A stretch of DNA of 40,267 bases from a virus (IMGVR_UViG_3300042352_001190:77578-117844); one strand, 5' to 3'; positions 961 to 28,779 are shown, counted from the stretch's first letter. Made by a program: numbers and translations. The notes: generated by a model not told the origin, from the letters alone.

Positions 961-1227
961 ATGTCGCAAATCGACCAGTTTTTAAATTACCTGTCCACGA
1001 TTAACGAATCAACGATTCAATTGACCAAACAGGACTACCAAAAAATTTGTGCGATTAGAGATAAGGTTACTGAACTAGCGGTTAAGGTATCTCAAAGCCA
1101 AACTATCATACATGGTACCTCAACTCAAATAAAGGAAACTAAAAAGGTTTCAATATATCAAAAAATGAATGAGTCTGGTGTTCTTCAATTTGAAGAATAT
1201 TCTAATTTACGCAAGCCTACTAACTAA
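961..1227 (+). CDS. Hypothetical protein (88 aa)
   Basis: ATG at 961 follows the upstream stop by 1 nt and is preferred over the overlapping 937 start; TAATG overlap with the next gene. Confidence 0.7.
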   Translation: MSQIDQFLNYLSTINESTIQLTKQDYQKICAIRDKVTELAVKVSQSQTIIHGTSTQIKETKKVSIYQKMNESGVLQFEEYSNLRKPTN

Positions 1228-2009
1228 TGAAGCATATTAAACTATTTGAAAATTTTAGCAGAGAATATCTAAAGACTAATAATAATTCTTTAGTTTCCTT
1301 TTATGCAGATAAGCTTGGAGATTTTTGGTTAGAAAAAGAATTACTTGAAAAACTAGAACAGTTTGAAGCAAGAGTAGATTCGCTTTTTTCAAATGACTGG
1401 AATCTAAATAGAGGCCGTAATCACTACAATGGAGACTTCTTTGCCCTAAATGTAAAAGTTTATAATTACCCAGATGAAGATGAAGTTCAGGCAAAGGTTG
1501 GCATTGAACTTGATGAGGAACGACTTTCTGATATTTGGTATAGATGGTTGCAAGATCAAGCTGAAATGTTTCAAGAAGATATTGAACAGTCTTACGATTG
1601 GGTTGGTCATGTTGGTTGGGGCGGAAATAGCGGCGGATGGCTACACCTTTCACCAGACAATGGCGCAGATAGATTATTAGAATATGCTGAAGAGACTATT
1701 CAAATGTATTTAGATACTAAAGAATGGTATGAAGAAGATGTTATTGCTGATGTAGCAAAGGCAATCAATAGTCCTGAATGGAAACGCCTTGCTGAACTTG
1801 GTTTGGTTGAAGACGAAGATGCAGTAAAAGAAATTACTGATAAATTAACTGAATCTATTAATTGGTTTAAGGCTGAACTTGCTAAACTCAATCAAATCGA
1901 AGAAGATCTTAAAGATATTCAGCGTCAACACAGATCATTTGAACAAAATGCAAAGAAATATTTTCTAGAATTCTTAGAAGAAGAGATTGCAGATGGCCAC
2001 TTAGGTTAG
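1227..2009 (+). CDS. Acidic protein with N-terminal capsid-targeting-like motif (putative internal head protein)
   Basis: N-terminus MKHIKLFENF resembles the T4 internal-protein CTS (MKTYQEF). Confidence 0.7.
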   Translation: MKHIKLFENFSREYLKTNNNSLVSFYADKLGDFWLEKELLEKLEQFEARVDSLFSNDWNLNRGRNHYNGDFFALNVKVYNYPDEDEVQAKVGIELDEERLSDIWYRWLQDQAEMFQEDIEQSYDWVGHVGWGGNSGGWLHLSPDNGADRLLEYAEETIQMYLDTKEWYEEDVIADVAKAINSPEWKRLAELGLVEDEDAVKEITDKLTESINWFKAELAKLNQIEEDLKDIQRQHRSFEQNAKKYFLEFLEEEIADGHLG

Positions 2010-3568
2010 CCTTTAATAAACTTACTTAAATCATAATTGTGCTTAGACACAATCCATTTTTCCTTTTCATAAATTTTCTCACGAACCTTACCGTGTTTTA
2101 CAATATAACCATTTAGATCGTCAATTAGATCATAAATCGTTACTTTGCTTTTTCCAGCCAATTTACGCATGCCACGACCTACTGCTTGGCGAATAGTAAT
2201 TTCAGACTTATAACTTTCTGCAAAAATAATGCTCTGCACATTTTTTAAGTCAATACCAGTTGCAAAGGTTGCATAGCTTGCAACTAGAGTTACGTTAGAA
2301 CCTGCTTCCATTGCATCTTTATATTCAGCTCGGTCATCTCCGCTTACTTCACCATCAATATAGAATGAGTTTGGATTCCACTCAGAAATTCTCTCTTTAA
2401 TTCGTTGACCGTATTTGTCTTTCACATTAATAAAAAGAATTAGGGTATTTCCACCTAGCTTTTTAACTAGTGATGAAATAAAATCTACACGAGGTTCGTA
2501 TGAAATAATAAAATCCTTTTCCATTTGGAACATATTCTTTCCATAGTCTTCAATACGATGGAATTGACTTTTACCGTGTTCCTGCATATATTTGTAGTTT
2601 TGAATAAAAGGCTCGTTCTCTGGATATTTTAGGGAAAGTATCTTAATAAACACGTCTGGCGAGTGTTTGTTTTCAATTAAGAAACTAGATTTAAGAGTCA
2701 TGCTTAGAGGGCCAATGTACTCTTGGATTTTATAGAAATCAGAAAAATCCTCATCGACTTGAATTGTACCAGAAAGTCCTAACTTATATTCAACATTAGT
2801 TGAAGCTAAGAGAATATCTTTAATAGTATCACCTCTTGAAGTATGACACTCATCTACACAAAGCACAGTAAATTTTTTAAAGAAGTCTCCATCGCGTTTA
2901 GCTAAACTTTGATAAGTTGAGATAACTAGATCCGCCTCTTCAAATTTCTTGTCTGAATATTTGTTCTTACCGCCAACTTCTAAAATATTCCAGTTAATTA
3001 GGCCAGTATGATAGTCCTTTACAAATTTTTCTGCAGTTTGACCAACTAATGAAATATTAGGAACTACAATAAGGGCTTTTTTATCTTTACCATTGATAAT
3101 TCCCTTACGCTTAAGAAAGCTTAAATATAAAAATAGGATTAGAGTTTTACCAGCAGAGGTTGCCAATTCCTGTGCACTAAACTTAAATTTAAGAGCACGG
3201 TATGCAGCTTCCATTTGATAATCATATGGAGTAAGATCGACTCCATCTAATAGGACACTTGCAAATTTATCAAGTTGATCCTTTGTAAATTCAAGATTAA
3301 GTAGAGAATCTAATCCATCTAATTCAATCTCATGACCGTAGATTTGACTAAACTGTTTGATTTGATACCATAAACCGACTCCGATTCGATTTTCGCGATC
3401 TATAAACTTATCATAGCCATCCCAAAGACGACGCTGAAATAGTGGACTAAAGTGATAGCCCTTGGCTCTTTTCTTAAAGAAGTTCTTAAGATCGACTACC
3501 TCTTTCTTAAGATCATTATGTATTAATTGAAAATATCTTTTATCTGGTGTTAACTTAAACTTTAGCAA
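2006..3568 (-). CDS. uvsW: UvsW-like SF2 DNA helicase
   Basis: YQ motif, ATSAGKT (Walker A), DECH, GLSGT, YATFATGID, QAVGRGMRK; next to a UvsY-like gene. Confidence 0.9.
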   Translation of the reverse strand: MLKFKLTPDKRYFQLIHNDLKKEVVDLKNFFKKRAKGYHFSPLFQRRLWDGYDKFIDRENRIGVGLWYQIKQFSQIYGHEIELDGLDSLLNLEFTKDQLDKFASVLLDGVDLTPYDYQMEAAYRALKFKFSAQELATSAGKTLILFLYLSFLKRKGIINGKDKKALIVVPNISLVGQTAEKFVKDYHTGLINWNILEVGGKNKYSDKKFEEADLVISTYQSLAKRDGDFFKKFTVLCVDECHTSRGDTIKDILLASTNVEYKLGLSGTIQVDEDFSDFYKIQEYIGPLSMTLKSSFLIENKHSPDVFIKILSLKYPENEPFIQNYKYMQEHGKSQFHRIEDYGKNMFQMEKDFIISYEPRVDFISSLVKKLGGNTLILFINVKDKYGQRIKERISEWNPNSFYIDGEVSGDDRAEYKDAMEAGSNVTLVASYATFATGIDLKNVQSIIFAESYKSEITIRQAVGRGMRKLAGKSKVTIYDLIDDLNGYIVKHGKVREKIYEKEKWIVSKHNYDLSKFIKG

Positions 3569-3583
3569 ACTCTTTGGATGTTT

Positions 3584-4033
3584 TTACACACCCAGCATCT
3601 TTTCAATATCAAGTCTAGTTTTAATTCCGAAAAGAGCGGCGTCTACTGTCTTGATTGTGTCTTGATAAAATTGAGTTTGGCTTTCGATCTGATCGATCGT
3701 TTCTTTGATGTTAGACGTTTTTCCGTCGACGATAGTAGTCTTTTCGTTAGAGTTGTATCTTAGCTGGGATGTTCTGGAGACTGCTTCCCACTCGTCTCCT
3801 TTTTGTTCTCTATATTTCTTTTTATAGCGATTGTAGTGTTCAATTAGGGTATGGTTTTCCTCAAGCAATCTTTGGCGTAAGCTTAAAAAGTAAACCTGAG
3901 CATCAGCAAGGCGCTTTATATTATTCATATAACCAACTCCTTCCTGTACCTCTTCAGACACAGCTTTACGCTTTGCCGAAAAAACGTCAGACAAACTCTT
4001 TTTAACTTCTGGTGATTGTTGTTCGAATTCCAT
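3584..4033 (-). CDS. uvsY: UvsY-like recombination mediator
   Basis: About 150 aa, helical; C-terminal FYQDTIKTVDAALFGIKTRLDIEK fits the UvsY C-terminal pattern; adjacent to uvsW as in T4; SD-like AGAAGGT upstream. Confidence 0.6.
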   Translation of the reverse strand: MEFEQQSPEVKKSLSDVFSAKRKAVSEEVQEGVGYMNNIKRLADAQVYFLSLRQRLLEENHTLIEHYNRYKKKYREQKGDEWEAVSRTSQLRYNSNEKTTIVDGKTSNIKETIDQIESQTQFYQDTIKTVDAALFGIKTRLDIEKMLGV

Positions 4034-5711: not shown

Positions 5712-6212
5712 ATGACAAAACGTATTATTGGAGACTTTAGCCAGTTCCTAAACGAGGCAGAAGAATCAGCACCACTTAAAGGATTACCTTTTCAAGAGCT
5801 TATGGATCAGTTGGTTAAATTAACAGATCTTACATCAGATAGTTTAAGCATCGGAACCCCAGCTGATATCTATGGTCACTCAACTTCATATAAAACAGAT
5901 CTTTCTGAGGTTCAAGCTAGATTAGCTGATGTTGACCACTACTATGCAACAAAAATGAAGCAAGAAGTTAGATTCTTTTGTTGGAATATCAATTGGAAAG
6001 ATTACTCTTCAGGTAGAGAGCTTGAAAAGAAGCTTCCTGAAGGAACTATCCAGGCATATCAAAATATCGATTTAGCAAAACTTATTACCTATTTTGAAGA
6101 AAATCCAGAAGATGCTGGTTTGTTAAAAGGAATTAACCTTAGCGTTTCTTCAAAAGCTGGACAAGAGTTTGCGAAAGATATGGGAGCAGGAAAATACGGA
6201 TCTTTAGACTAA
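5712..6212 (+). CDS. Putative internal head protein (CTS-like N-terminus)
   Basis: MTKRIIGDFSQFLNE|AEE: CTS-like motif followed by an LxE protease-type site; follows a late promoter. Confidence 0.65.
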   Translation: MTKRIIGDFSQFLNEAEESAPLKGLPFQELMDQLVKLTDLTSDSLSIGTPADIYGHSTSYKTDLSEVQARLADVDHYYATKMKQEVRFFCWNINWKDYSSGRELEKKLPEGTIQAYQNIDLAKLITYFEENPEDAGLLKGINLSVSSKAGQEFAKDMGAGKYGSLD

Positions 6213-6228
6213 TAACAATTTAAATTTT

Positions 6229-9123
6229 ATGGCAGGATTAAACCACTTAAAAGACATTTACGAAAAGAAGGGCAAAGAATTTTTAGAAGCTCTTCTTAAT
6301 AAAGAAGTTATCGTTAACGAAAAAATGGACGGTGCATTTTTTGGTGCACAAAGAAACTGCGGAAACTCAGAAGAACCATTTGACTTTTTTAAACGTAATA
6401 CTAAATTAACTGGAGTTGATCGTGTCCTAAGTTCATACTATAATCCAGCACTTAAACATTTTGATGAGTTATCATCAGAAGTAACTGAAAAACTTCCATG
6501 TAACTATCACTTTGGGATGGAATATTTCAGTTCCCCAACTGCTCAATCAATCCAATATGATAGACTACCAAAAAATCACTTAATCTTAAGCTATATCCAT
6601 ATATTGGACGAAGCTGGCGAACAGGCTGAAACTATTCAAGATAAAGCAGATTTGGACAAGTGGGCAGATATTTTAGATATTGAGCGCCCTCCAATTATTT
6701 TTCAAGGAAAACTAACAGACGATCAAAAAGAGAAAATTTTAGATTTTGTCTATACTCCACTTGATGAATTAGTTGGAAAATTTAAGACTGCATCATTTAC
6801 AAAATACATTATTAATGTCTTAAATCCTGAACTTAAAACCTCTTTTTTAAGAGATACTGCAGATAAAGATATTGAAGGAATTGTATTTAGATTTTATGAG
6901 CCAGGCGGAGAAGATTCAGTATTTTTGGCAAAGTTAGTGGACCCAGTTTTCCAAGCAAGAGCAAAAGAAAAGGCTCAAGCTAGAGTTGAGGCACCAAAGA
7001 CTGATGATTATATTTGGATCATGACTGCAGACCTAATGAATTTTATTGAAACCTATTCACAAGCAGATCTTGATGCAATTAAACCAAATGGTACAACATT
7101 TGAAAGACGTTATATTCAAATTATAAATGCAATTTTTAAAGATTTTGTTCAAGAACATGGTAGCAAATATCGCGGACTTGAAATTACAACACCAGAATTC
7201 CTAAATAAGCCAGAATTTGACGTTAACCGAGCATTAATTAGTGATGATATGGTTATCAACCTAATTGATTCTGATAAAACTCTTAAAGAACTCTATCGAG
7301 TTTTCTTAAATACTTTTAGAAAAAAGAATATTAGAGTTAGCTCAACATTTTTCAATAAAACTATGAAAGAAACTCTAAAGTCCCAAATTGCTAAGGTTCA
7401 ACTTGCAGCAGAGGACAAATTAAATGAAGCGTTCTTCCCTACCTTTAATCAATTTTTTGGAACAGATGAAGATGCAACTGATTTTTTCAGTCAATTTCAA
7501 ACTGACCAAAATAAAAAAAAAGATATTGAGGTAGTTGTCTATTTAGACAAATTTCAGCCATTAAGTAAAGAACACGAAAAGGTTGCCTCAAGTATCAAGG
7601 GAAAATACGATGTGCCTTGTTTAATGATTGCATATCACCCAGGTCAAAGAAGTTCAGCCTTTCCAATGTCACCAGAAACTGTTAAAAGTTCAATTGATAG
7701 GTTAACTAAAACTTCAGACTATGTAGTTGGTGGAGGAACAACTGATTCAATCGGAATAGATGAATTAATTAAGTCAGCTGGACAGGGATATTCAATTAAA
7801 GCAATTGCAACAAATTCTGAGTTTGTGCCAGATTTAGTAATCGATCTTAACCGAATTAACAAAAAAGCTCCATATGCAAAAATACCATCTCAACTTAGAG
7901 TGGTGGAGGTTCCTAAAATCGAATTAGAAAGCGATCTTATTAATTCAGTTAAAAACCAAGATTTTGTTCAATATAAAAATCTAACAAGTAAACCTTTACA
8001 TTCAGAGTTTTATAATATGACAAAGGAGATTGAAGAATCCCTTTTAAATGAATCAATATCAGCTGCAGATTTGGATAAAAGAAAAACTGATTTGCTTGAT
8101 TTGATTATTGATGCTCCATACAATGAAGTTCTTTATAAAAAGATTGAAAAGCTTTTAAAGAGAACGCATAATGATTTAACTAAGGATTTGTTTGATATTC
8201 TTAGCAAAACTAAAGGTTATAAAGATTTAGCAAAAACTATTGTTTCAATTGCTGATGATTTAGATCAAGATGATGAACTCCTTGCATATCTAGAAAATCC
8301 AACTGTTACGTTTGAAGATGTTATAAAATCGCCAAATGGTAATCTAAAAACCCTATTTAATACAACTGGCCTTAGCACAGAACTATATGATCAATTATTC
8401 AATTTAATTGGCTCAGTTGGTAGTGTAAATATTGGTCGTGGAGAAATTTTAATGTCAATCCTAATTAAAGATGCAATAAATGCAGATAATAAAACTAAAG
8501 GCGACGTTAAAATTGGATCAGACTCTATTGAAATTAAATCAAGTGGAGATAATTTTAGATTAACTGGTCAAAGTGGTACTGGAATGGGAGCCGATACTGG
8601 AAACTATATTAGAAAAGGTCTATCTGACCTATTTACTGCAGCCAAGCAGGAAGTACCAGAATATTTTGAAAATTCTACGGCATTTGCGCCATCAGCATCA
8701 GCAAATCCACGAAAGGAATATTTTAGCCAAGGAATCACAGCAGCAGTTCAGGCATCAAATAAAGCCGAGGTTGTTGAAATTTTAGCTTCTGGTTTTAATT
8801 TAATTTACAAAAACTATAAAGAAGAACTGGTTTCAGTTTTTAATGCTGCAGTTGCCGAAGATGGCGCATTCAATAATAGAGCATATTTAGATGGTGTTCT
8901 AAAGATTGAATTTGACCGTTATTTACAAGATGGCACATATTTTATGGCTGTAAGTAAGCACACTGGCGACTATGTCTTGATTAATGGAAAGATTACAGAT
9001 GATCAGCTTAAATACTTTAAAGTTGAGCAAGCTAATAATATTAGACCTAAATCAACTTCTTCTGACTCTCTATTGGGAATCGATATTAATATGGATTCTT
9101 TCTCTACAGCTCCTCAAGAATAA
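6229..9123 (+). CDS. 964-aa multidomain protein: ATP-dependent ligase-like nucleotidyltransferase + degenerate cytidylyltransferase-like domain + PD-(D/E)xK nuclease-like domain
   Basis: EKMDG (K32), GMEYF, EGIVFR and AKLVD ligase motifs; VYLDKFQPLSKEH resembles GRFQPxHxGH; GRGE(739)...GD(759)...IE(768)IK(770). Confidence 0.65.
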   Translation: MAGLNHLKDIYEKKGKEFLEALLNKEVIVNEKMDGAFFGAQRNCGNSEEPFDFFKRNTKLTGVDRVLSSYYNPALKHFDELSSEVTEKLPCNYHFGMEYFSSPTAQSIQYDRLPKNHLILSYIHILDEAGEQAETIQDKADLDKWADILDIERPPIIFQGKLTDDQKEKILDFVYTPLDELVGKFKTASFTKYIINVLNPELKTSFLRDTADKDIEGIVFRFYEPGGEDSVFLAKLVDPVFQARAKEKAQARVEAPKTDDYIWIMTADLMNFIETYSQADLDAIKPNGTTFERRYIQIINAIFKDFVQEHGSKYRGLEITTPEFLNKPEFDVNRALISDDMVINLIDSDKTLKELYRVFLNTFRKKNIRVSSTFFNKTMKETLKSQIAKVQLAAEDKLNEAFFPTFNQFFGTDEDATDFFSQFQTDQNKKKDIEVVVYLDKFQPLSKEHEKVASSIKGKYDVPCLMIAYHPGQRSSAFPMSPETVKSSIDRLTKTSDYVVGGGTTDSIGIDELIKSAGQGYSIKAIATNSEFVPDLVIDLNRINKKAPYAKIPSQLRVVEVPKIELESDLINSVKNQDFVQYKNLTSKPLHSEFYNMTKEIEESLLNESISAADLDKRKTDLLDLIIDAPYNEVLYKKIEKLLKRTHNDLTKDLFDILSKTKGYKDLAKTIVSIADDLDQDDELLAYLENPTVTFEDVIKSPNGNLKTLFNTTGLSTELYDQLFNLIGSVGSVNIGRGEILMSILIKDAINADNKTKGDVKIGSDSIEIKSSGDNFRLTGQSGTGMGADTGNYIRKGLSDLFTAAKQEVPEYFENSTAFAPSASANPRKEYFSQGITAAVQASNKAEVVEILASGFNLIYKNYKEELVSVFNAAVAEDGAFNNRAYLDGVLKIEFDRYLQDGTYFMAVSKHTGDYVLINGKITDDQLKYFKVEQANNIRPKSTSSDSLLGIDINMDSFSTAPQE

Positions 9124-9165: not shown

Positions 9166-9345
9166 GTGAATTCTTCTCAGAAAAACTATAAAGATTATAT
9201 CCAGGGTAAAGCTAGATTGGAAAATGCAATCATACAGCACCCAAGCGGAGAAAATCCAATTATGGATCTTTTAAAGAAGGAAACCAATAGAACCTTCTGG
9301 GTTAAACCATTCGCCGATTGGAAAAAACAAACTACAAAGAAATGA
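9166..9345 (+). CDS. Small 59-aa protein not in the ORF track
   Basis: GTG start with AAGGG upstream; MNSSQKNYKDYIQGKARLENAIIQHPSGENPIMDLLKKETNRTFWVKPFADWKKQTTKK; ATGA overlap with the next gene; fills the gap. Confidence 0.7.
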   Translation: MNSSQKNYKDYIQGKARLENAIIQHPSGENPIMDLLKKETNRTFWVKPFADWKKQTTKK

Positions 9346-9761
9346 TTCCATTTGAATTACAAAGCGGAATGGACGAGCCTCAAACTGAGGGCATGGACGT
9401 ATCAACGTTTATGTTAAGTCTATTACAAATCAGGGACCAGGCACATATTTTACACTGGCAAACAACTAATGAAGCTCAGCACAATGCATTTGGAGCTTTT
9501 TATGATGATTTCTTAGGATTAGTTGATGAAATTGCTGAACAAGTTATTGGAAAATACGGCAGATTTAAAGTTGGAGGTTGTGCTATTTTGGTTATGGACT
9601 ATGATCAAGCAATGCCAATTTTTATCCAAAATATTGAAAAAGTATTTCAACAAGATTTTTGTGAAATCTTTGATCAAGAATCAAATACTGAATTGTATAA
9701 TTTAAGAGATGAATTTTTATCACTTAAAAACAAATTAGCTTACAGATTAACCCTAGACTAA
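9342..9761 (+). CDS. Ferritin/Dps-like four-helix protein
   Basis: HW-x7-H-x3-G-x2-Y-x7-D-x2-AE resembles the Dps ferroxidase pattern; ATG 9342 preferred over TTG 9318. Confidence 0.65.
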   Translation: MIPFELQSGMDEPQTEGMDVSTFMLSLLQIRDQAHILHWQTTNEAQHNAFGAFYDDFLGLVDEIAEQVIGKYGRFKVGGCAILVMDYDQAMPIFIQNIEKVFQQDFCEIFDQESNTELYNLRDEFLSLKNKLAYRLTLD

Positions 9762-11374
9762 TGCTTAAATTTAAACACATAAATATCCTTGAACAGCTTC
9801 TATTAGAATCTGAATTAATTATTATTGGAAATGAAGTTTCTGATATTATTGCATTTGCAAAAAGTGGCGGTCAGAAAGAAGAGGATATTATGAAAAAGGT
9901 TGATGAGTTTTTATCAAAACTTATTGAGAACGACCTTTTAAATAAAGCTAAAACTGATCCTCAGGTTCTTCAACAATTAAGCCAAACTTTCCTTAATAAA
10001 GAATGGATTGATATTCTAAATAAGTATATCGATTTTGTATCTCAAGTTCTAAAATACGAAACTGAAATTCTTGATGAAATGATTAAGAATGGAGATGATG
10101 TTGAATTACAATTAGAAAGAATTAGAGCATATAAAGGAAGAATGGGTATTGTATGGGAAGCCTATCATACAATCGAAGAAAGTAATTGGACCGAAGAGGT
10201 TAACAGTCTACTTGATAAAATCAAAATTTCATTTACTGGTCAAAAGAAAAATGAATCTGAAGTTTCTAAAAATCTTATTGCTGCGGCAAAGGAAAAAATG
10301 GAAAATACTTCAGCTGATTCCGAAGATTTTAAAAAGACCGTTGATGATACAATAAAGGTTGCCTATATCATCTCAGATTTTTCAAACAAAGATGAAGATA
10401 AAAAGAAGCCTGAGCCAGATGTAATCGACGTTGAATGGGAAGATGTTAAGGAAGAAATGGACAAGGACGTTGATGATTTTAGAAAATCTACTGATGACTT
10501 TAATAAAAGAACTGAAGGTAAAGCCGAAACCATTACTAAGCGTGATGTTATTATCAAAAATGCAATTGAAGAATTAAGAAACTGGACTGATTTAAATACG
10601 CTAGAATCTCAATTTGTAAAGGTTCGTATTATGATTATGACAGACGAACGAGGTGAAGTTGATCCTATTACTAAGCGTAGAATTCCATTAGTTAAATTAG
10701 ATGACTCTGCTAAGAAACAATATATGGTTGAGGCAATTGAGGCATACTTAGAAGCAAGAGCACGTCTTGGAAAATATAAAACTGATCTTGATCTAAAGAA
10801 ATATAAAGGAGTTTCATATTCACCTTCAATATCTCTTCCTCTATTTGAAAGAACTAAAATTCCTATTACATCTAAACAGATGTTAGATTCAAGTAGAATT
10901 AACTACTTATTAAAGATTGGAAATTATTTAGGAACAATTTTAGCCGATGTTGAATGGCTCGGAGACGAACAAAAACATTTAGGAGCACTTATTGCAAAAT
11001 TTAGAAAAGCCACTTTACCTATTGTTGGAAGAACTATTTCAAGAACTGCCAAAATAACTGGCGGCAAAGAAGCTCAATTAAAAGCTGAAAAATGGACTAG
11101 ATTTCTATTTACAAGTCAAGAAAGTGGATTAGACGCTCCACAAAGTAAAATTAAAGGAGCAACTAAAGTTGGGTCAGGAACAGTTAAAGAAGATGCAATG
11201 GCGCCTGGCGTAGCGTTTCAAACTCCAGCAAGTATAGGTGGAATGGGAGATGCAATTGCACCAACTCAAACAACACCTGGTTCTGGTGATAATTTCCAAC
11301 CAAGAAAATCTAAAAAGTCAAATAAGAATATTATGGACTTTGCAAGTTTTTATAAAAATTTAGGTAAAAAATAA
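9761..11374 (+). CDS. Large helical virion/head-associated protein (537 aa)
   Basis: N-terminal KHINILEQLLLE|S, late VKE|D site and C-terminal KNIMDFASF motif; in the late operon. Confidence 0.65.
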   Translation: MLKFKHINILEQLLLESELIIIGNEVSDIIAFAKSGGQKEEDIMKKVDEFLSKLIENDLLNKAKTDPQVLQQLSQTFLNKEWIDILNKYIDFVSQVLKYETEILDEMIKNGDDVELQLERIRAYKGRMGIVWEAYHTIEESNWTEEVNSLLDKIKISFTGQKKNESEVSKNLIAAAKEKMENTSADSEDFKKTVDDTIKVAYIISDFSNKDEDKKKPEPDVIDVEWEDVKEEMDKDVDDFRKSTDDFNKRTEGKAETITKRDVIIKNAIEELRNWTDLNTLESQFVKVRIMIMTDERGEVDPITKRRIPLVKLDDSAKKQYMVEAIEAYLEARARLGKYKTDLDLKKYKGVSYSPSISLPLFERTKIPITSKQMLDSSRINYLLKIGNYLGTILADVEWLGDEQKHLGALIAKFRKATLPIVGRTISRTAKITGGKEAQLKAEKWTRFLFTSQESGLDAPQSKIKGATKVGSGTVKEDAMAPGVAFQTPASIGGMGDAIAPTQTTPGSGDNFQPRKSKKSNKNIMDFASFYKNLGKK

Positions 11375-11375: not shown

Positions 11376-11729
11376 ATGCAAAAAATTAAAACATTCGAAT
11401 CATTTTCGCAAGAAGATTTCGAACCTACTCAAATACAGCCTTTTCAAGAAAAGCCTGAAGTCGATCATACTGAAGATTCATACAGCGATGGTGCAGAATA
11501 TGAGCACTATATGTTCTTTAATAATTTAAAGACTATCCAAAGAAATATTGAAGAATTACTTCAATTGGATGCGCATGAAGTAAATGAAATATTGTCAAAT
11601 GGTCATGCATGGGCAGATGATCATATTGCAACTTCATCGGATGATATCGAAGAAGTTAAAAACTTTTTGGTTAATGAATTAAGCGGCTCTAGTGAGAACT
11701 TAATTCAAGAAGAACCAACTCAATACTAA
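11376..11729 (+). CDS. Putative internal head protein (CTS-like)
   Basis: MQKIKTFESFSQE, very close to the T4 CTS. Confidence 0.7.
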   Translation: MQKIKTFESFSQEDFEPTQIQPFQEKPEVDHTEDSYSDGAEYEHYMFFNNLKTIQRNIEELLQLDAHEVNEILSNGHAWADDHIATSSDDIEEVKNFLVNELSGSSENLIQEEPTQY

Positions 11730-12517: not shown

Positions 12518-12802
12518 ATGAATAAAGTACTTTCATATTCAGAATTTATCACAGAAGCAAGAAAAACCAAAAACTCACCAGATTGGCATGACTCAGATGC
12601 TCCTGATGCAAATGGTAAATTTAAAAGCCTTGGAATTAAAGCCCTAGCTTCATGGTTAATTAAAACCAGAAAGGGTGATATGAGAAAAATTACAGGTAGC
12701 CTTAACCAACAAATTGTTTTTAACCGCAATGACAATCCATCCTATGCTAAAAAGATGGAAAAGGTTAGAGAAGAGGTAAAAAGACAACTTAATAAAAAGT
12801 AA
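12518..12802 (+). CDS. Basic putative internal head protein (CTS-like)
   Basis: MNKVLSYSEFITE|ARK; ATG 12518 preferred over 12503. Confidence 0.7.
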   Translation: MNKVLSYSEFITEARKTKNSPDWHDSDAPDANGKFKSLGIKALASWLIKTRKGDMRKITGSLNQQIVFNRNDNPSYAKKMEKVREEVKRQLNKK

Positions 12803-12808
12803 TATCAT

Positions 12809-13285
12809 ATGTACGTAAAGCCATTTAGCGAATATGTAAGTTTGCTTGAGAAAAAGTCAAACCCAGAAAATCCTGCACAATATAAAGCTCCAGAAGGAAG
12901 TTCTAGAGATAAAAAATTGGATAAGGCTAAACGTTTATTGGATAATGGCAAAAAAGAGGCTGCTTATAAACTTAGAGATGAGATGGAAGCAGCGGAAAGA
13001 AAAAAATCTGGTTGGAAAAATACCCCAAGACCAGATTCAAAAGTAACTGAGGCCAGCAAGAAAAAATCATCTAATCTTAGCAAAGAGACCCTAGCTAAAA
13101 TTAAGGCAGTTGCTGATAAAAAAGGTTATTCATTTGCCGATTTAAAACGTGAATACACCAAAGGTCTAGGTGCATTTTACTCGTCTGGTTCCAGACCAGG
13201 AATGACTGCTCATCAATGGGCAATGGCTAGAGTAAATGCGGCAAGTCCAAGTAAATCTTGGGCCGATGTCAAAAAGACTAAGTAA
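12809..13285 (+). CDS. Basic putative internal head protein (CTS-like), two small domains
   Basis: MYVKPFSEYVSLLE|KK, internal VTE|A site, C-terminal GLGAFYSSGSRPGMTAHQWAMARVN. Confidence 0.7.
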   Translation: MYVKPFSEYVSLLEKKSNPENPAQYKAPEGSSRDKKLDKAKRLLDNGKKEAAYKLRDEMEAAERKKSGWKNTPRPDSKVTEASKKKSSNLSKETLAKIKAVADKKGYSFADLKREYTKGLGAFYSSGSRPGMTAHQWAMARVNAASPSKSWADVKKTK

Positions 13286-13554: not shown

Positions 13555-14274
13555 ATGGCATTCGAAATCGGGGATAAAGTTAAGCTTAGATTATCTAAAG
13601 ATACAATGGATCGTCTTAACCTAGTTGGCGCTCCAATTGATAATAAAATTGTTACTATTGGCAAAGTTTATAAAATGGATTATGCTCCAGATCAAACTCT
13701 TTATATGGTCGATTTAGACGAGCCAATTAGATTTGAAGAAACTACCTTTGATGAAATCTACGATCTCCGCGATGCAGATCTAGACCTAATTGATGCGAAT
13801 GAGACTCTTCCAGAAAATAAAGTATTAAGATTTTCTTCCTTTTTAAATGAAGCAAAGGAGCCAGCCAGCTGGTACTTTGGAATTGCCGATTGTCACGGTA
13901 TAGAATCTTTTAATAAAGAAAATATCGATCATACATATTTAAATCAATTAGACAGAATTCACGATTTAGGGTTAGCTGACGAAACAGCTCCGACCAGAAA
14001 AAGTGTAATGAAAGAATATAATGGTCAATTGAATATGATGATGATGCGTTGCAGATTCAATGAACAACGTCACCCAGTAGTTTATAGAGTTTTATTAACA
14101 GATGATGTTGCTGACTATATTCAATCATTAGTTGATCAACGCGATTATATTGGCGCACTAAATGCAATCAAAGATCACTCAACAGAGATTCAATTAGCAC
14201 GAGGTCAAGGCGCAAACCTAGAAAGACGCTGGAATATGATTCCTAATCCAGATCTTGATCCATTCCACGGATAA
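13555..14274 (+). CDS. Two-domain protein: N-terminal SH3/KOW-like barrel plus a domain after an internal CTS-like site
   Basis: FEIGDKVKL start; internal NKVLRFSSFLNE|AKE. Confidence 0.6.
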   Translation: MAFEIGDKVKLRLSKDTMDRLNLVGAPIDNKIVTIGKVYKMDYAPDQTLYMVDLDEPIRFEETTFDEIYDLRDADLDLIDANETLPENKVLRFSSFLNEAKEPASWYFGIADCHGIESFNKENIDHTYLNQLDRIHDLGLADETAPTRKSVMKEYNGQLNMMMMRCRFNEQRHPVVYRVLLTDDVADYIQSLVDQRDYIGALNAIKDHSTEIQLARGQGANLERRWNMIPNPDLDPFHG

Positions 14275-21633: not shown

Positions 21634-21676
21634 GTGTCAACTTGTCACTTGTTGCGAATTATTTGTATCAATACGA

Positions 21677-21684
21677 TATAAATA
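21677..21684 (+). promoter_or_regulatory. Late promoter, exact T4 consensus TATAAATA
   Basis: 20 nt before an in-frame GTG at 21705; a second ATAAATA lies at 21616-21622. Confidence 0.65.
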
Positions 21685-21704
21685 ATAAAAAAAAATCAGG
21701 CAAC

Positions 21705-23738
21705 GTGGTCCTTACAGGCGTAAACGAAATTACAAATACTTCAGATATGCTCTTCATTATTGAAAGAGTAAATGAAGGTTTAAACACAGCTAAGTTAGAA
21801 AACGGAGACATTGTTATGGAAGGTGTTTGTGCAGTATTTGACACAAAGAACAATAACAACCGTATCTACGAAAAAGCTGAGTATCTTCCCCACCTAGAAT
21901 ACCTAAACGAGAAAATCGAAAGAGGTCAATTATTTGGTGAGTTAGACCACCCTCAAAATTTTGACGTTTCACTTAAGAATGTTTCTCACGTAGTTGAGAA
22001 ATTATGGTACGATCAAGATTCTAATAACGTAAAAATTAAAGTACGTCTGCTAAATACACCAGCTGGCCAGATTGCAAAAACTCTAGTTGAGTCAGGCTGT
22101 ACTATTTCAACTTCTTCAAGAGCTGCTGGTCAGGTAATGAATGAAGGTAAAGTAAAAATCCAAAGAATATTCACATATGACTTAGTAGCTGAACCTGGTT
22201 TCAGTGAAGCAGTTCTTAGAAGATCAGTTAACGAGAGCTTCCAAAGCAATTACTCTATGCTTTTTGAATCTTTGGACAATATTAAATCAACCTCAATTAT
22301 AAACAAGTTAGTCGATATCTCTGAGAGCTTAAACCTCGCAGAATCGATCAAAGTTTATAAGATAAATAATGAAGAGATAGTAAAACCTATGGAAAATAAT
22401 AACAAACACATGACTAATGAGTTTGTAACGAAAGAAGCATTCAACCAATACTCTGAACTTGTTAAGAGCAAGTTCGACGCGCTTAAAGAGAGCGTAGATA
22501 AGATGGTTGATAACTTCGCAGTTACCGAAGACGACCAACCTACTGATGCTCCAGTGGTTGAAGATCCAAATGCTGAAAAAGAAGAAGAAAACGCACCTGC
22601 TACCAACGAACAGTTGGTTGAGTACGTTAACTATCTTTCAAGCGAGCTTGGCAAAGTAATTGAATATAACAATTACCTTTCTGGCATGTTAAACAAATCT
22701 ATTAATTATTCTGAGCATGTTGCTGAGAAAGTTAATAAGGTAATTGATTACTCTGATTATCTTGCAGAAAAAGTTGAACAAGGTATCGGTTACTCTGAAT
22801 ACGTTGCTGAAAACTTAAATAGTGCAATTGACTATTCTGAGCATATCGCAGAAAACGTAAACAAAAATATTAAATACACAGAGTACTTAGCAGAAAACCT
22901 TGATAAAGGAATTCAATATTCTGAGTATGTTGCTGAAAAATCAGAACAAGGTATCAGATACACTGAATACGTTGCTGAAAACTTAAAGCACTCTATTGGT
23001 TACGCTAACTATCTTGCTGAGAACCTTGAAAGAGGAATCAAATATTCTGAGTATATCGCAACTGAATTAAATGAAGGTAAAGTAGGTCTTTCTACTAAGT
23101 CTGCCTCTGCATTTAGCCAAATCGAAAAATTAGACGAATCTGTAAACTACCAAGTTTCTGAAGGTTCTAATGTTAATGATATTGTTGGTTCAGTTAATGC
23201 AATTGTTAAGCATATCAAAGATAATTCAGCTAAATCTGTATTAGAAAGCAGATATCCTTTCTTAAAGCTTCTTAACGAAGATAATAAATCAAGATTCTTT
23301 AATTTAGATCAAACTCAAAAAACTGCTATCATTGAAGCTCTTTCTGGAGCAGTTTACTTCAAAGAAGAAGATGTTATTCAAATTATTGAATCAGTTCTTA
23401 ATAAGCAACAAGAAAATATTCCTAACTTAATTAAGTTCATGCCTGCTAAATTCAAAGATATTTTTGAAAGCATGACTCCTGCTGAAAAGAGCCGTTTAGA
23501 AGCACAAGCTTCTTTAACTGTTCTTAATACTCCTTACCAAGTTAAAAACTTCTGGGAGAGCAGAGATTTAAGAGGTGTTAATGAAAGAATTTATTTCGAA
23601 AAACAAAATAAAAATGCGCAACATATCAACGAAAGCCAAGGTAGAGAAGGTTTTATCTCGATTGAGAAAGTTGCGGAACATCAAAGAGGTTATGGTAATG
23701 CATACCTCGACGCTCTAAAAAGAAGAGCACAAAACTAA
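21705..23738 (+). CDS. gp21: Prohead protease (gp21-like) fused to a coiled-coil scaffold (gp22-like)
   Basis: MEGVCAVFDTKNNNNRIY, GELDHP, VSHVV, ISTSSRAAG, TYDLVAEPGF; then 14-aa repeats. Start uncertain: GTG 21705 or ATG 21747; the track start 21642 lies upstream of the promoter. Confidence 0.88.
   Translation: MVLTGVNEITNTSDMLFIIERVNEGLNTAKLENGDIVMEGVCAVFDTKNNNNRIYEKAEYLPHLEYLNEKIERGQLFGELDHPQNFDVSLKNVSHVVEKLWYDQDSNNVKIKVRLLNTPAGQIAKTLVESGCTISTSSRAAGQVMNEGKVKIQRIFTYDLVAEPGFSEAVLRRSVNESFQSNYSMLFESLDNIKSTSIINKLVDISESLNLAESIKVYKINNEEIVKPMENNNKHMTNEFVTKEAFNQYSELVKSKFDALKESVDKMVDNFAVTEDDQPTDAPVVEDPNAEKEEENAPATNEQLVEYVNYLSSELGKVIEYNNYLSGMLNKSINYSEHVAEKVNKVIDYSDYLAEKVEQGIGYSEYVAENLNSAIDYSEHIAENVNKNIKYTEYLAENLDKGIQYSEYVAEKSEQGIRYTEYVAENLKHSIGYANYLAENLERGIKYSEYIATELNEGKVGLSTKSASAFSQIEKLDESVNYQVSEGSNVNDIVGSVNAIVKHIKDNSAKSVLESRYPFLKLLNEDNKSRFFNLDQTQKTAIIEALSGAVYFKEEDVIQIIESVLNKQQENIPNLIKFMPAKFKDIFESMTPAEKSRLEAQASLTVLNTPYQVKNFWESRDLRGVNERIYFEKQNKNAQHINESQGREGFISIEKVAEHQRGYGNAYLDALKRRAQN
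22608..23069 (+). repeat. Eleven tandem 14-aa (42-nt) coiled-coil repeats, consensus xKxIxYSEY[VLI]AEx[LV]
   Basis: EQLVEYVNYLSSEL ... ERGIKYSEYIATEL; 11 x 42 nt = 462 nt exactly. Confidence 0.9.
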
Positions 23739-23755: not shown

Positions 23756-25288
23756 ATGTCTACAAAAGTATTTAAAAGACTAAACGATTCTTCTGTTAAG
23801 TCAACTTGGACTCCGGTTTTAGAAAGCTATGGTGTAAACGCAGATTCACGTCCTTGGTTAGTAGATTATTGCCACTATCACGCAATGTTCGAAAACGCAG
23901 GTGCAATCAACGAAGCTGCTGTTGCTCCAGGTTTATTCTATCAACAACCAGGTTCTATCAGTTCAATCGGTAACCCATTAGCTCCTACAACAGGTGCAAA
24001 CGGTTCTGGCGATAAATTCCCTAGCTTATTGCCTGTTGCTATTCAAGTAGCAGCTAAAACAATTGGTTTCGACCTAGTTGGTGTAGTTCCTATGGATTCT
24101 CCAGTTGGTTTCTTACCTTATTTGGATTATGTTTACCAAGGTGGTAACGTTGGATCTGAATTCGAACCGTATTTGATCAAAACTAACCTTGACGTAGCTA
24201 ACCCAGCTGCAACTGCAAACGGTACAGACTTTATCCAAGTTGGTAAATCTCGTTTAGATGGTAAATTCATCTACAAAGTTGTTACTGGTACTGACGCTAG
24301 CGTTACTGTAGCTCAAGAAGCTGTTACTGCATCTATCGCTACTGCTGTTAGTGATGTTGAATTAGTATCTGCTTTAGAAAACCACATCTCTGGTTTCACT
24401 TCATTAAGTGATGCTGATTGGGCTGATGGTTCTCCTGCAGTAACTGGTCCTTTCTTAGCTGGAACTGAGTACACTCAGTCTATGTCAAGAGGTGCTGGTG
24501 AAACTTCTAAGTTTCGTCAAATGGGTCTTAAAATGTTCACTAAGTTTGTTGAGGCTAAAACTTCTCAAGTTTCTATCTCTGCAACAGTTGAGCAAATCCA
24601 AGACCTTAACCGCGTTTGGAATTTCGACGCAATCTCTATGTTAGAGAATGTTGCTGTTAACGAGCTTGCTCAAACAATCAACAAAGAAATCGTTTCTAAA
24701 GTTAAAAACTTAGCAACAACTCACGCAACTGCAGCTGCTTCAGCTGAAGGTTACGTTAATAAAGTTTTCGTTCAACCAGGTACTGGTACTTTCGAAAACG
24801 TAACGACTTCTCAAAGAAAATTAGTTACTAAGATTCTTGAATCTGCTAACTTAATTTACCACAGAGCTCGTTTCGGTGCTGGTACTTTCGCAGTAGTTTC
24901 TGCTAAAGTTGCATCTGCTATGGCTGATGCTGCTGGTTACTCTATCGCTCCATTCAACAATGATTTAGGTTCTGCTGCTGGAACTCTTTACCCTGCTGGT
25001 AAAGTTCACGGTTTAACTATCTATGTTGATCCAAACTTACGTTTCGATGACAACACTGTTCTTATCGGTCGTAAAGGTGCAGACGAAGAGCCAGGACTTA
25101 AATTCATGCCTTATATCATGGCTGAATCTCTTCAAACTATTTCTGAGGGTACATTCTCTCCGAAAATCGGTATGAAGTCAAGATACGCATTGGTTGAAGC
25201 TGGATGGCATCCACAAACTCAGTATGTTCAGTTTAGCATCCTAAACAACTCAACTGATAACACAACTGGTATCTCTTTCTTAGGTTAA
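23756..25288 (+). CDS. gp23: Major capsid protein (gp23-like)
   Basis: WTPVLES, IGFDLVGVVPMDSP, ELAQTINKEIV, YVDP, FMPYI, PKIGMKSRYAL; probable maturation site INE53|A; strongly biased codons. Confidence 0.93.
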   Translation: MSTKVFKRLNDSSVKSTWTPVLESYGVNADSRPWLVDYCHYHAMFENAGAINEAAVAPGLFYQQPGSISSIGNPLAPTTGANGSGDKFPSLLPVAIQVAAKTIGFDLVGVVPMDSPVGFLPYLDYVYQGGNVGSEFEPYLIKTNLDVANPAATANGTDFIQVGKSRLDGKFIYKVVTGTDASVTVAQEAVTASIATAVSDVELVSALENHISGFTSLSDADWADGSPAVTGPFLAGTEYTQSMSRGAGETSKFRQMGLKMFTKFVEAKTSQVSISATVEQIQDLNRVWNFDAISMLENVAVNELAQTINKEIVSKVKNLATTHATAAASAEGYVNKVFVQPGTGTFENVTTSQRKLVTKILESANLIYHRARFGAGTFAVVSAKVASAMADAAGYSIAPFNNDLGSAAGTLYPAGKVHGLTIYVDPNLRFDDNTVLIGRKGADEEPGLKFMPYIMAESLQTISEGTFSPKIGMKSRYALVEAGWHPQTQYVQFSILNNSTDNTTGISFLG

Positions 25289-25517: not shown

Positions 25518-25871
25518 ATGGCAAACCCAGTATTGTCTTACACAGAATTCCTAAACGAAAAAGTTAACCAAAACTTAGCAGTTATGCCTGCAGCAGGTGC
25601 TAGATTAGGAAAAAGCGTTGATCCTAAAATGGCTAAATTAGATATGCCTAAAGGTTCTAGCATTAAAAAATCAGTTGATGCAAAAATGACTGATCTTAAG
25701 GCTGCTAAAGGTTCTAAAATCTCTAAGTCAGTTAATTCTAACTTTGCTGAAGCAACCCCTAAAGGTAAAGCTATCACTAAGTCAGTTGATCCTGCATTCG
25801 GTAACTTAGTTATCAAAGGAAAGGCTATCTCTAAGTCAGTTGACGCTCAGATGGCTAAGAAACAAAAATAA
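25518..25871 (+). CDS. Basic repeat-containing putative internal head protein (CTS-like)
   Basis: MANPVLSYTEFLNE|K, then KSVD...KG.xI repeats. Confidence 0.75.
   Translation: MANPVLSYTEFLNEKVNQNLAVMPAAGARLGKSVDPKMAKLDMPKGSSIKKSVDAKMTDLKAAKGSKISKSVNSNFAEATPKGKAITKSVDPAFGNLVIKGKAISKSVDAQMAKKQK
25611..25859 (+). repeat. Five 18-19-aa Lys-rich repeats (KSV[DN]...KG[SK]xI[KST])
   Basis: KSVDPKMAKLDMPKGSSIK / KSVDAKMTDLKAAKGSKIS / KSVNSNFAEATPKGKAIT / KSVDPAFGNLVIKGKAIS / KSVDAQMAK. Confidence 0.85.
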
Positions 25872-25882
25872 TTAAAAACTCG

Positions 25883-26362
25883 ATGAGGATTACATTAAGT
25901 ATACCTCGCAGCATTGTTCAGTACATGGACGAAGTTGGCGTGCCAATGCAAGAAAGAGCAGATCTTTATGAAAGATTTGTATCGTATTCTATCGGTCTAA
26001 TGACTGGGGATGAGCTTGATCGCTTTGAGTCATATGCATCTGATCATGAATCAGAATATGCTGGCGAATCAATGACATTCGAGTCTTTTGTTGCAATCAA
26101 TGAAAAATCTAGAAATTCTCTTAAAGAATTAGTAGGTAAAGATGATGAAGAAGAACTAGATCTTGATGATGCACGTCGTATTGGAAAGAAAGTTTCTAGA
26201 ATGACTGGAGATGATCGTAAGAAATTCGTTGGAATTATTAATTTCATGGGTGCAAGCTGTAGAATATACAATGAAATTTGGGCAAACTATAAACCAGTTG
26301 ATCCAGAAAGAAAAGATTCCAATAAAGGTAAAGCCTTTAGAGGAGAAAAACCACAAGCATAA
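25883..26362 (+). CDS. Hypothetical late protein with an internal CTS-like site
   Basis: SMTFESFVAINE|KS at mid-protein. Confidence 0.7.
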   Translation: MRITLSIPRSIVQYMDEVGVPMQERADLYERFVSYSIGLMTGDELDRFESYASDHESEYAGESMTFESFVAINEKSRNSLKELVGKDDEEELDLDDARRIGKKVSRMTGDDRKKFVGIINFMGASCRIYNEIWANYKPVDPERKDSNKGKAFRGEKPQA

Positions 26363-26366
26363 TTAA

Positions 26367-27554: not shown

Positions 27555-27562
27555 TTCAATGA

Positions 27563-27569
27563 ATAAATA
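27563..27569 (+). promoter_or_regulatory. Putative late promoter (ATAAATA)
   Basis: Intergenic, 20 nt before the tail tube ATG at 27590. Confidence 0.6.
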
Positions 27570-27589
27570 AACAAAAAGGTCCAATATAA

Positions 27590-28180
27590 ATGGCAGGTTT
27601 ACCACATTTTAAAAATTCAACAGTAGGTCGTAATCTATTTGAACCGTTATACCTTAACCAGTTTACGGTAATTATTACTCCTCCTAACTCAATCAACAAC
27701 GGTGCAATTACTCCGCTATTGGTTGAACACGTAAAAGATCTATCTGGATTGCCAGAACAAGCAGGTACAGGTACTTTAGCAGAACAAAAGTATAGATTTA
27801 CTAAAAGATATTTTGCTGCAGCTGCTCCTAAAGAAACTGGTGCTAAACTAACAGTAACATTTGAAGTTAACTTAAATGATGCAAATGAAATGTATGTTTA
27901 TAACCAATTTAGAGCTTGGGCGAACCTAGTATACGATCCATTGACTGGTCGTCAAGGTCTTAAAAAAGACTATGCTCCAAACGGTGCCAACATTTATGTA
28001 GGTGTACACAATAGAGCTGGTGATATCTACAGAGAGTTTACATTTTCTCCAGTATTTGTTTATGGAGATAGTAACCTAACTGAAGAAATGAAATTGGATT
28101 ATAGTTCAGACGGTATCTACACTGCTAAGTTTAACTTTGTTGCTGATAGCTACACTGAAACTAGAAATGGACAATTCTAA
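27590..28180 (+). CDS. gp19: Tail tube protein (gp19-like)
   Basis: EPLYLNQFTV, TVTFEVNLND, FRAWANLVYDPLTG..GLKKDY; size typical of T4 gp19 homologs. Confidence 0.8.
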   Translation: MAGLPHFKNSTVGRNLFEPLYLNQFTVIITPPNSINNGAITPLLVEHVKDLSGLPEQAGTGTLAEQKYRFTKRYFAAAAPKETGAKLTVTFEVNLNDANEMYVYNQFRAWANLVYDPLTGRQGLKKDYAPNGANIYVGVHNRAGDIYREFTFSPVFVYGDSNLTEEMKLDYSSDGIYTAKFNFVADSYTETRNGQF

Positions 28181-28200
28181 AAATTTAAAACCAAAGCCAA

Positions 28201-28779
28201 ATGGATATTTTTAACCTAAAAAGTAACGACGTTAAAGACTTTAAAAGATTTATGGACATGAAAGCTCCTGCATTCGGTGGACCTAATGAAACTGAGCCAT
28301 TCGATAAATCAAAAAGAAAATCTTTAAAAGAGTGGACTAATATCGCAAAAAGAGACGCTAATTTTGAAAATGGCGGTAAAAACCATAATAATGATGGTTA
28401 TTGGAAAGCATTTCATAGTGATGTACCAAGTCGTGCTGCCAAAATTAAAATCGAAGAACCTTTAAATACACCTCCAGCAATGGGAGTTACTATTGTAAAA
28501 GAAAGTCATGTTCCTCAATTTGAAAATTATATGTTTGAAGAAGAAGTTGATGATTTAGATGATGCACAAGTAGAAGATCAACCAGAAATCGACGAAGAAG
28601 CTCTTGAAATGTTTATTGAAGAGTTTAGCGATGAACTAAAAGAAATTTTAGAAATTGCTTGCGAAAAGATGGAAATCGAAAAGGATGAGTGCGTTGAAAT
28701 ATTTAAAGCAGCTATTCAGAAAGTTTCAGAAATGCCAGAAGAGGACGAAGAAGAATCGACTGACGAAGACGAAGAATAA
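28201..28779 (+). CDS. Acidic putative head protein with CTS-like sites
   Basis: DVKDFKRFMD and VKE|SHVPQFENY; very acidic C-terminal half. Confidence 0.7.
   Translation: MDIFNLKSNDVKDFKRFMDMKAPAFGGPNETEPFDKSKRKSLKEWTNIAKRDANFENGGKNHNNDGYWKAFHSDVPSRAAKIKIEEPLNTPPAMGVTIVKESHVPQFENYMFEEEVDDLDDAQVEDQPEIDEEALEMFIEEFSDELKEILEIACEKMEIEKDECVEIFKAAIQKVSEMPEEDEEESTDEDEE

Follow-up and report, generated by a model that had tools for sequence, protein, structure and literature searches.

The internal proteins of bacteriophage T4 carry a short capsid targeting sequence (CTS) at the N-terminus, MKTYQEFIAE (PMC8442874), for which suppressor studies assign targeting mainly to residues 4 and 7 (Tyr4 and Phe7 of IPIII) and processing to residues 8 and 10 (Ile8 and Glu10); an Asp at position 10 blocks cleavage but not targeting (PMC9026906). 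T-even phages hold at least ten internal protein (Ip) families with a common leader, and all three internal proteins of T4 inhibit host restriction systems (PMC12373910). Ejection and inner-body proteins with long cleavable propeptides are found in phiKZ, 201phi2-1 and SPN3US (PMC5694885). Here, we describe a clade-wide system of short, CTS-like peptide tags, borne by about a tenth of the proteins in a ~250-kb phage and its relatives, and present in a 40,267-nt stretch of viral DNA (‘the window’) that makes up bases 77578–117844 of a 117,844-bp IMG/VR contig (IMGVR_UViG_3300042352_001190; 46% complete by CheckV). The principle is known from the T-even phages; what is new is how many and how large the cargo proteins are, along with the internal and C-terminal copies of the tag, the fusion of the protease to a scaffold with tag-like repeats, and the enzymes amongst the cargo. 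We found no description of this tag system in this lineage in the literature.

A short tag shared by otherwise unrelated proteins

The tag is ~11 residues long and built on the core Ar-x-x-Ar-h-x-E (Ar, aromatic; h, hydrophobic), its first aromatic sitting at residue 4–10. Related stretches number at least 138 in IMG/VR, some on contigs of 250–271 kb, and three whole relatives were compared with the window's contig (G000): G001 (216.8 kb; capsid protein 80% identical), G003 (252.6 kb) and G002 (270.1 kb; rated complete). A position-specific scoring matrix (PSSM) trained on 47 strict tags from these three gives the consensus M-K-H-[ILV]-K-x-[FY]-[ST]-Q-[FW]-[ILV]-[NT]-E-[SNA]; we scanned the window's contig with it against a background of 60 proteome shuffles, the scores to be read with the caveat that the training set includes orthologues of the window's own tags. 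The two aromatic columns (F/Y at 0, F/W at +3) hold 3.2 and 3.3 bits; tags of the strong class add I/L/V at +4 and Glu at +6, the most invariant residue, with I/L/V at −3, K at −2, Q at +2 and N/T at +5 being informative beyond a regular expression.

The bare pair Ar-x-x-Ar is not enriched at N-termini over protein interiors. The loose pattern h-x-x-[FY]-x-x-[FYW] begins 21 of the contig's 162 genes (~5.5 expected; 3.8-fold, p 3e-7), is enriched 3.5–4.5-fold at N-termini in the three relatives, and is seen in as many as ~40 genes of a complete genome; with 96 further occurrences inside the contig's proteins, a single internal match carries no weight. For h-[KRQH]-x-Ar-x-x-Ar the N-terminal enrichment is 18–28-fold, whilst Ar-x-x-Ar-[LIVM]-x-E stands at 7, 12, 16 and 19 protein starts (window contig and three relatives), its per-position rate being 4–12 times the internal one. 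Strong tags number ~8–21 per record.

A first-pass annotation of the window had quoted twelve strings as instances of such a tag, and all twelve are present in the open reading frames (ORFs) and at the positions that it named; they differ widely in strength (Table 1; genes are named by their first nucleotide in the window, or in the contig where so marked). Four, at the starts of 5712, 12518 and 25518 and inside 13555, belong with contig 849, contig 55516 and an internal site of contig 68253 to a class far above chance, scoring 17.5–26.9 (≤0.02 expected per proteome); the window's own strong scores, 19.6–23.6, were unequalled in the shuffles. The tag of 11376 is moderate, as are those of contig 12705 (12.0) and contig 2722 (9.1); those of 1227 and 12809 are weak, and the remaining five do not rise above chance on their own sequence. 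Orthologues rescue three of these five (28201, 25883 and 9761) and in part a fourth (6229, conserved but uncertain), leaving 9166 unsupported. About ten further tagged genes, absent from that annotation, lie on the contig.

That a portable tag is carried by otherwise unrelated proteins is well borne out. Counting as tagged, here and for the promoter counts below, any protein scoring ≥8 inside the first 14 positions, the four genomes hold 62 (8, 14, 19 and 21 per genome) which, minus the tag, fall into 42 BLAST families, none with two proteins from one genome. Within one genome, shared tag residues use the same codon in 53% of cases, against 51% from genome usage; codon sharing thus approximates genome usage, which points to selection on the peptide and not on DNA or RNA. 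Tags also persist at sites without a nearby start codon. The clade-wide tag system is genuine.

The condition that the first-pass annotation had named as refuting its reading, a motif just as frequent in replication proteins, does not arise: none of the window's replication or nucleotide-metabolism genes is tagged, their N-terminal scores being all ≤0.6 and mostly −8 to −17 (nucleotide-metabolism and replication/recombination genes occupy the minus strand from 28810 onward). Tagged genes form islands; in G002, for instance, one stretch of 9.4 kb holds six and another of 9.2 kb holds five. In all four genomes the top-enriched upstream 7-mer is ATAAATA(A), which resembles a T4 late promoter and typically precedes the start codon by 18–26 nt: 32 of the 62 tagged genes and 130 of the 937 others have ATAAATA in the 50 nt upstream (odds ratio 6.6, p 2e-11), and a second, early-like motif, TAGTATAAT, precedes two of the 62. 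On the window's contig, 13 genes have the late-like motif at 18–26 nt, nine of them tagged or tag-like (GATAAATAA stands 22 nt upstream of 5712), the other four including the protease–scaffold gene and a presumed tail-tube gene. The enrichment, together with the motif before the protease–scaffold gene, may point to a promoter role for ATAAATA and to late expression of the tagged genes with those of the head. The form [GT]ATAAATAA occurs ~18–26 nt before the starts of 18 genes on the contig (1.2 expected), e.g. 5712, 21642 and 27590, and of 39–58 in the relatives; from their sequences, it and TAGTATAAT look like late and early/middle promoter classes.

Likeness to the T4 capsid targeting sequence

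The likeness to the T4 CTS that the first-pass annotation had drawn stands up position by position, the four functionally mapped T4 residues (Tyr4, Phe7, Ile8 and Glu10) being the four fixed positions of the clade motif; on the clade PSSM the T4 peptide scores 14.0, at a false-positive rate of 2.8e-6 per position. Both systems have a short N-terminal peptide common to unrelated, fast-evolving proteins, in which two aromatics at a spacing of three precede I/L/V-x-E; a gene for a gp21-family protease adjoining that of a gp23-family capsid protein; a basic internal-protein-like member; and tagged genes in variable islands, linked to a TATAAATA-like late motif. The two also differ. The lineage is a very distant one, its nearest named relatives being Lak and Tenacibaculum phages: the capsid protein is ~36% identical to those of uncultured huge and Prevotella Lak phages and 31% to that of Tenacibaculum phage pT24, its nearest matches in GenBank phages, and ~26% to cyanophage capsids, and megablast of 20 kb of the window (G+C, as for the contig, ~33–35%) returned no matches to GenBank phages. 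From the closest capsid relatives, and from the character of the contig's signal peptides, the hosts are probably Bacteroidota. The clade tag is longer than that of T4, with extra conserved positions, and its strong form is found ~8–21 times per record rather than three; some of the cargo proteins are predicted enzymes of a fair size; conserved copies of the tag stand at internal and C-terminal positions too; the protease is fused to a scaffold whose repeats contain the tag core; and the system is known here from sequence alone.

We favour reading the motif as a T4-type CTS, i.e. a packaging and cleavage tag, and put the probability of this at roughly 0.75, a figure held down by every functional step resting on the T4 analogy. 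Targeting, cleavage and injection of the tagged proteins are what we infer: the first half of the tag (h-K-x-Ar-x-x-Ar) would take the protein into the scaffold core of the assembling prohead, and cleavage at the second half ([ILV]-x-E), by the scaffold-fused gp21-family serine protease, would free the mature protein inside the head, from which it would later exit with the DNA. Internal tags, in a few conserved families, may derive from gene fusions or polyprotein-like chains, and the two families with a C-terminal tag (9761 and a HAD-like protein), often lacking the Glu, would probably go uncut; C-terminal tags in which the Glu is missing or replaced by Asp or Gln agree with the cleavage-independent targeting of T4. 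On this analogy, enzymes of many kinds, made in advance, are probably injected along with the DNA of these phages.

There is also a likeness to phiKZ, 201phi2-1 and SPN3US: many of their head-internal and ejected proteins are cut after Glu by a T4-related prohead protease, the propeptides being thought to target the prohead (PMC5694885). Those propeptides, however, are mostly >100 residues, family-specific and cut at A/S/G-x-E (PMC5694885), whereas the clade has one shared tag. We rejected assignment to this long-propeptide class on tag length (~11 residues) and on the I/L/V before x-E.

Tagged genes of the window

Table 1. Tags, tag-like sites and head genes of the window (positions in nt of the window; ↓, predicted cut; scores are for the window's own sequence)
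Position	Strand	Feature	Tag or site	PSSM score
1227..2009	+	260-aa protein	Degenerate, N-terminal: MKHIKLFENFSRE (1227–1265)	4.7
5712..6212	+	166-aa protein	Strong, N-terminal: IIGDFSQFLNE↓A (5724–5756)	22.4
7417..7455	+	Site in 964-aa RNA-ligase-like protein (6229–9123)	Internal: LNE↓AFFPTFNQF (aa 608)	−4.0
9298..9321	+	Site near C-terminus of 59-aa protein (9166–9345)	WVKPFADW	1.6
9761..11374	+	537-aa protein; tail of VKE↓D, capsid N-arm copy (aa 472–512) and Lys run	C-terminal remnant: IMDFASFYKN (11330–11359)	−9.7
11376..11729	+	117-aa acidic protein	N-terminal: MQKIKTFESFSQE (11382–11414)	8.8
12518..12802	+	94-aa basic protein	Strong, N-terminal: MNKVLSYSEFITE↓A (12518–12556)	19.6
12809..13285	+	158-aa DUF5824 protein (Pfam 3.4e-10)	Gapped, N-terminal: MYVKPFSEYVSLLE↓K (12809–12850)	3.0 (ungapped)
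13555..14274	+	239-aa fusion; N-domain (aa 1–85), conserved C-domain	Internal: KVLRFSSFLNE↓A (aa 93; 13819–13851)	23.6
21642..23738	+	698-aa prohead protease fused to scaffold; Peptidase_S77 (aa ~37–185), helical C-terminal domain	Repeats, aa 326–479 (22617–23078)	
23756..25288	+	Major capsid protein, gp23 family; Pfam Gp23 (PF07068) 1.5e-47	Putative maturation site A-I-N-E53↓A (23903–23914)	
25518..25871	+	117-aa very basic repeat protein	N-terminal: MANPVLSYTEFLNE↓K (25527–25559)	21.0
25883..26362	+	159-aa protein; conserved C-terminal domain after tag	Internal, gapped: MTFESFVAINE↓K (26072–26104)	−0.5
28201..28779	+	192-aa protein; conserved N-domain, acidic C-domain	Internal remnant between domains: VPQFENYMFE (28510–28539)	1.2

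Amongst the N-terminal tags, that of 25518, which directly follows the capsid gene, belongs to a family that most relatives with a capsid identity of ~57% or more keep next to that gene, and its residues V5, Y8, E14 and K15 are invariant in 17 relatives; the protein looks like the counterpart of the basic internal proteins of T4. The start of 12518 is an ATG within a TTG-started frame at 12503, and its mature 80-aa domain recurs as the C-terminal domain of longer tagged proteins, one of 443 aa in G002 (with two copies of the module) and one of 402 aa in G003, where it follows V/I-S-E↓KK. Two tags keep the targeting half only: in 1227, a protein that matched no Pfam family, Ser replaces the hydrophobic residue preceding x-E (S-R-E), the orthologues in G002 and G003 having full tags (MVKTFTQFITE and TFSQFILE); in 11376 the cleavage half reads S-Q-E and is likewise not kept in orthologues (VKTFEAFEQD, VKTFENFLEG). 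The 12809 protein has an orthologue only in the close relative G001.

Internal and C-terminal tags

The tag is overwhelmingly N-terminal, with internal and C-terminal copies that are conserved: strong non-N-terminal matches number 15 in the four genomes, three of them at miscalled starts, against ~2.6 by chance. The idea of the first-pass annotation that the tag works at any position goes further than this and is an inference.

Its highest-scoring internal example, 13555, does contain the tag, but is a gene fusion. Residues 87–236 match G002 and G003 proteins that start with a tag (MQMQNHIKPFKAFNE↓S and MKYANSFKSFNE↓S) and residues 1–79 match a separate small gene; the internal tag is the N-terminal tag of a gene now fused to a small upstream ORF. 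Genes of this island often fuse or split; besides the joining of that small ORF to the tagged 13555 domain in the window, G002 136312–137259 joins the 13555 C-domain to the 11982–12509 protein.

For 25883 and 28201, it is the relatives that make the case. Orthologues of 25883 always have Ar-x-x-Ar-h-h-x-E↓NSLKD before the C-domain, at the N-terminus in 100-aa forms but internally in three subclades whose N-terminal extensions are mutually unrelated, one of them without any nearby Met. Around 30 distinct orthologues of 28201 have a perfect internal tag at aa ~108, VEEGK-I[KL]RFEQFVNE↓N (PSSM 20–30), from which an 8-residue deletion in the window's subclade has left VPQFENY-MFE. Several copies are found in the Cys-rich, acidic 405-aa protein of contig 68253–69470, a gene with a late-like promoter: three strict tag cores (aa 56, 254 and 320) are accompanied by further h-N-E sites, and one segment is a free-standing 62-aa tagged protein in G002. 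By sequence it looks like a polyprotein of head-internal modules.

C-terminal tags are seen in two families. In that of 9761 (a single-sequence search reached only close relatives, an alignment query extending the reach), 32 distinct relatives conserve a tail made up of its own h-x-E, a copy of the capsid N-arm, a Lys run and then the tag, which mostly reads VLGFADFIKE↓QNNL, with IMNFSQFLNE↓N found in some; most of these 32 tails have the Glu, though it is lost in that of the window, IMDFASFYKNLGKK. The window's tail (nt 11174–11374, aa 472–537) is 46% identical to capsid aa 48–88 (nt 23897–24019), including APG...PGSI..MG...PT....GSGDNF, and might mimic the capsid arm so as to dock within the shell. 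The second family is that of the HAD/cytidylyltransferase-like protein of contig 69607, which ends in VKSFSDYLSDK; its orthologues in G001 and G003 keep VK[ST]F[SN]D[YF].

The last two sites are less tag-like. In the 6229–9123 protein, which has a Pfam RNA_ligase domain at aa 25–235, the G002 and G003 orthologues keep, where two domains meet, an h-x-E with FP[TS]F..F after it, and the site is possibly one of cleavage between domains rather than a clear tag. Conserved h-x-E is in fact seen at two domain borders of this protein (aa 400 and aa 608), and the G002 orthologue ends at ~aa 615, without the C-terminal third. In the 9166 family, FWV.PF..W is present in all four orthologues and h-x-E in none of the four, and the site was therefore not counted as a tag.

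The head module

Assignment of the protease rests on Pfam matches to S77 (PF03420; 5.4e-12, 46 bits against a cut-off of 27) and S80 (1.6e-8), with candidate catalytic residues H103 and S158/S159 invariant in 21 relatives. The fused scaffold contains eleven exact 14-aa units, I-x-Y-[ST]-E-Y-[VLI]-A-E-N-x-x-x-G, and ~50 relatives, down to 44% identity, keep 6–11 copies of Ar-x-x-Ar-h-x-E at a period of 14. This 7-residue core is common to the scaffold repeat and the cargo tag, seven of the repeats scoring 3.7–9.9 on the tag PSSM; as the repeats are copies of one another, they count as roughly one observation, and we regard the link as suggestive. The T4 scaffold gp22 and the core proteins gp67 and gp68 are degraded by gp21. 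By layout the clade scaffold is comparable, being helical with many h-x-E sites that would yield small peptides; unlike these T4 proteins, it is fused to the protease and contains exact repeats whose core equals that of the cargo tag. An AlphaFold2 model of the whole protease–scaffold has a mean predicted local distance difference test score (pLDDT) of 52, with long helices at 322–400 and 406–477 (pLDDT 32–45), and was used for secondary structure only. Complex prediction from alignments, for scaffold aa 300–490 and the first 40 residues of the 25518 protein, gave a score of 0.00 which, having no controls, speaks neither for nor against binding.

In the capsid protein, aa 51–53 read [ILV]-[NF]-E in nearly all of ~50 relatives (M-N-E in one), followed by a conserved APGLF.QQPGS; on the T4 model, this is where the maturation cut would be expected. 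Between the gene of a gp5-like baseplate OB-domain protein (19947–20750) and that of the protease–scaffold lies one for a DnaJ (J-domain) protein (20770–21633; Pfam 2.8e-26), an unusual place for a co-chaperone.

A further possibility, which we hold tentatively and at well below even odds, is that each cargo tag amounts to a single copy of the 14-residue scaffold repeat, such that any protein carrying one, whether N-terminally, internally or C-terminally, would join the helical scaffold bundle and be released as the fused protease takes the scaffold apart repeat by repeat. Were this so, the ~250-kb phages would pre-load ~20–40 proteins (~10% of their genes) for injection, including wall hydrolases and such counter-defence enzymes as an Acb1-like cyclic-nucleotide phosphodiesterase and NUDIX hydrolases. 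The shared core at least offers a concrete idea of the tag's binding partner, a matter unsettled even for T4.

Competing explanations

A number of points weigh against the motif being a T4-type CTS. Packaging, cleavage and injection in this clade are drawn wholly from the T4 analogy, and cleavage is doubtful for 1227 and 11376, given the missing hydrophobic residue before x-E. A simple longest-ORF rule set the gene starts, and some N-termini may therefore lie a few residues away. A PSSM built from the eleven scaffold repeats finds two N-terminal hits ≥6 in the proteome against 0.57 expected, which does not exceed the shuffles; it ranks contig 68253 (VEYNEYVAEA) first, 25518 second and 12518 eleventh. 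Finally, pT24, a cultured distant relative with a protease that is also scaffold-fused, has neither the tag nor a 14-residue repeat in the 41 kb around its capsid gene, from which we take the tag system to be specific to this clade.

The alternative that survives best, though we consider it unlikely, is that the motif is a processing site or propeptide of the protease and nothing more, the proteins reaching the head or maturing by another route and the aromatic half serving, for example, to keep enzymes inactive until cleavage. The invariance of the Glu would be expected of such a site, h-x-E is found also in the capsid protein and scaffold repeats, and the 12518-type mature domain follows a plain V/I-S-E, without aromatics, in relatives. 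Set against this, the aromatic half is as strongly conserved as the cleavage half and persists without h-x-E in 1227, in 11376 and, at the C-terminus, in the 9761 and HAD families; the T4 residues that it matches are, moreover, the targeting determinants.

We think it improbable that the tag addresses some other destination or partner, be it the lumen of the tail or baseplate, the host membrane, the phage's DnaJ-domain protein or host chaperones. One cargo protein does fall in the ‘phage tail lysozyme’ family, the DnaJ-domain gene is directly upstream of that of the protease, and the tag resembles a short amphipathic helix; but the match to the T4 CTS spans the targeting as well as the cleavage positions, the tagged protein with the strongest conservation is basic, internal-protein-like and next to the capsid gene, and the tag has no hydrophobic core usable as an export signal. 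A Sec, Tat or lipoprotein signal peptide was rejected as such, the tag alternating charged, polar and aromatic residues, ending in Glu and lacking a basic N-region with a hydrophobic core of ~10 or more residues behind it; true signal peptides on the contig look different (e.g. MKKLIISSIFTLLSTGVYSQ).

Least credible of all is a shared N-terminus due to paralogy or to a nucleotide-level feature of translation starts, to which the AT-rich consensus codons (AAA, ATT, TTT, CAA, AAT, GAA), the commonness of Lys at position 2 across many genomes and the grouping of tagged genes in islands might point, but which we rejected, paralogy on the BLAST evidence (42 families, the mature parts having no detectable similarity within one genome) and AT-rich start codons or another nucleotide-level element on the codon evidence (synonymous codons at shared residues following genome usage), with Trp (TGG) also frequent at the second aromatic position and perfect tags conserved internally and C-terminally, far from any start.

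Cargo

The majority of cargo proteins have no Pfam family. On the window's contig, the matches are a tail-lysozyme-family protein (2.5e-22), one weak nucleotidyltransferase and the DUF5824 of 12809, to which can be added an Acb1/2H-phosphoesterase-like protein (contig 12705–13244; Pfam Acb1 3.7e-8) with both H-x-T motifs and the tag MKTIKDFITE↓K, tagged too in its G002 orthologue. Its presence suggests that an enzyme directed against the cyclic-oligonucleotide-based anti-phage signalling system (CBASS) may be pre-packaged. Relatives add two NUDIX proteins, a phage lysozyme, a CHAP domain, an Acb1-like protein and a HAD hydrolase (Pfam). None of the T-even Ip families in Pfam matched any of 20 tagged or tag-like contig proteins or 47 of the relatives; the likeness to T4 internal proteins appears, by sequence, to be confined to the tag.

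If the tags work as in T4, they provide a listing, read from sequence, of the injected proteome for a large group of uncultured jumbo phages, most of it made up of proteins whose function is not known. The tagged Acb1-like phosphodiesterase, NUDIX proteins and wall hydrolases suggest that counter-defence and entry enzymes arrive before phage gene expression, and the conservation of tags at internal and C-terminal sites would give more freedom in designing foreign proteins to be loaded into phage heads. A PHROGs search with ten window proteins returned unnamed families only, save for the 147-aa protein of 9318–9761, which lies amid tagged late genes and matches PHROG 858 (‘starvation-inducible transcriptional regulator’, Dps-like; 3.4e-14).

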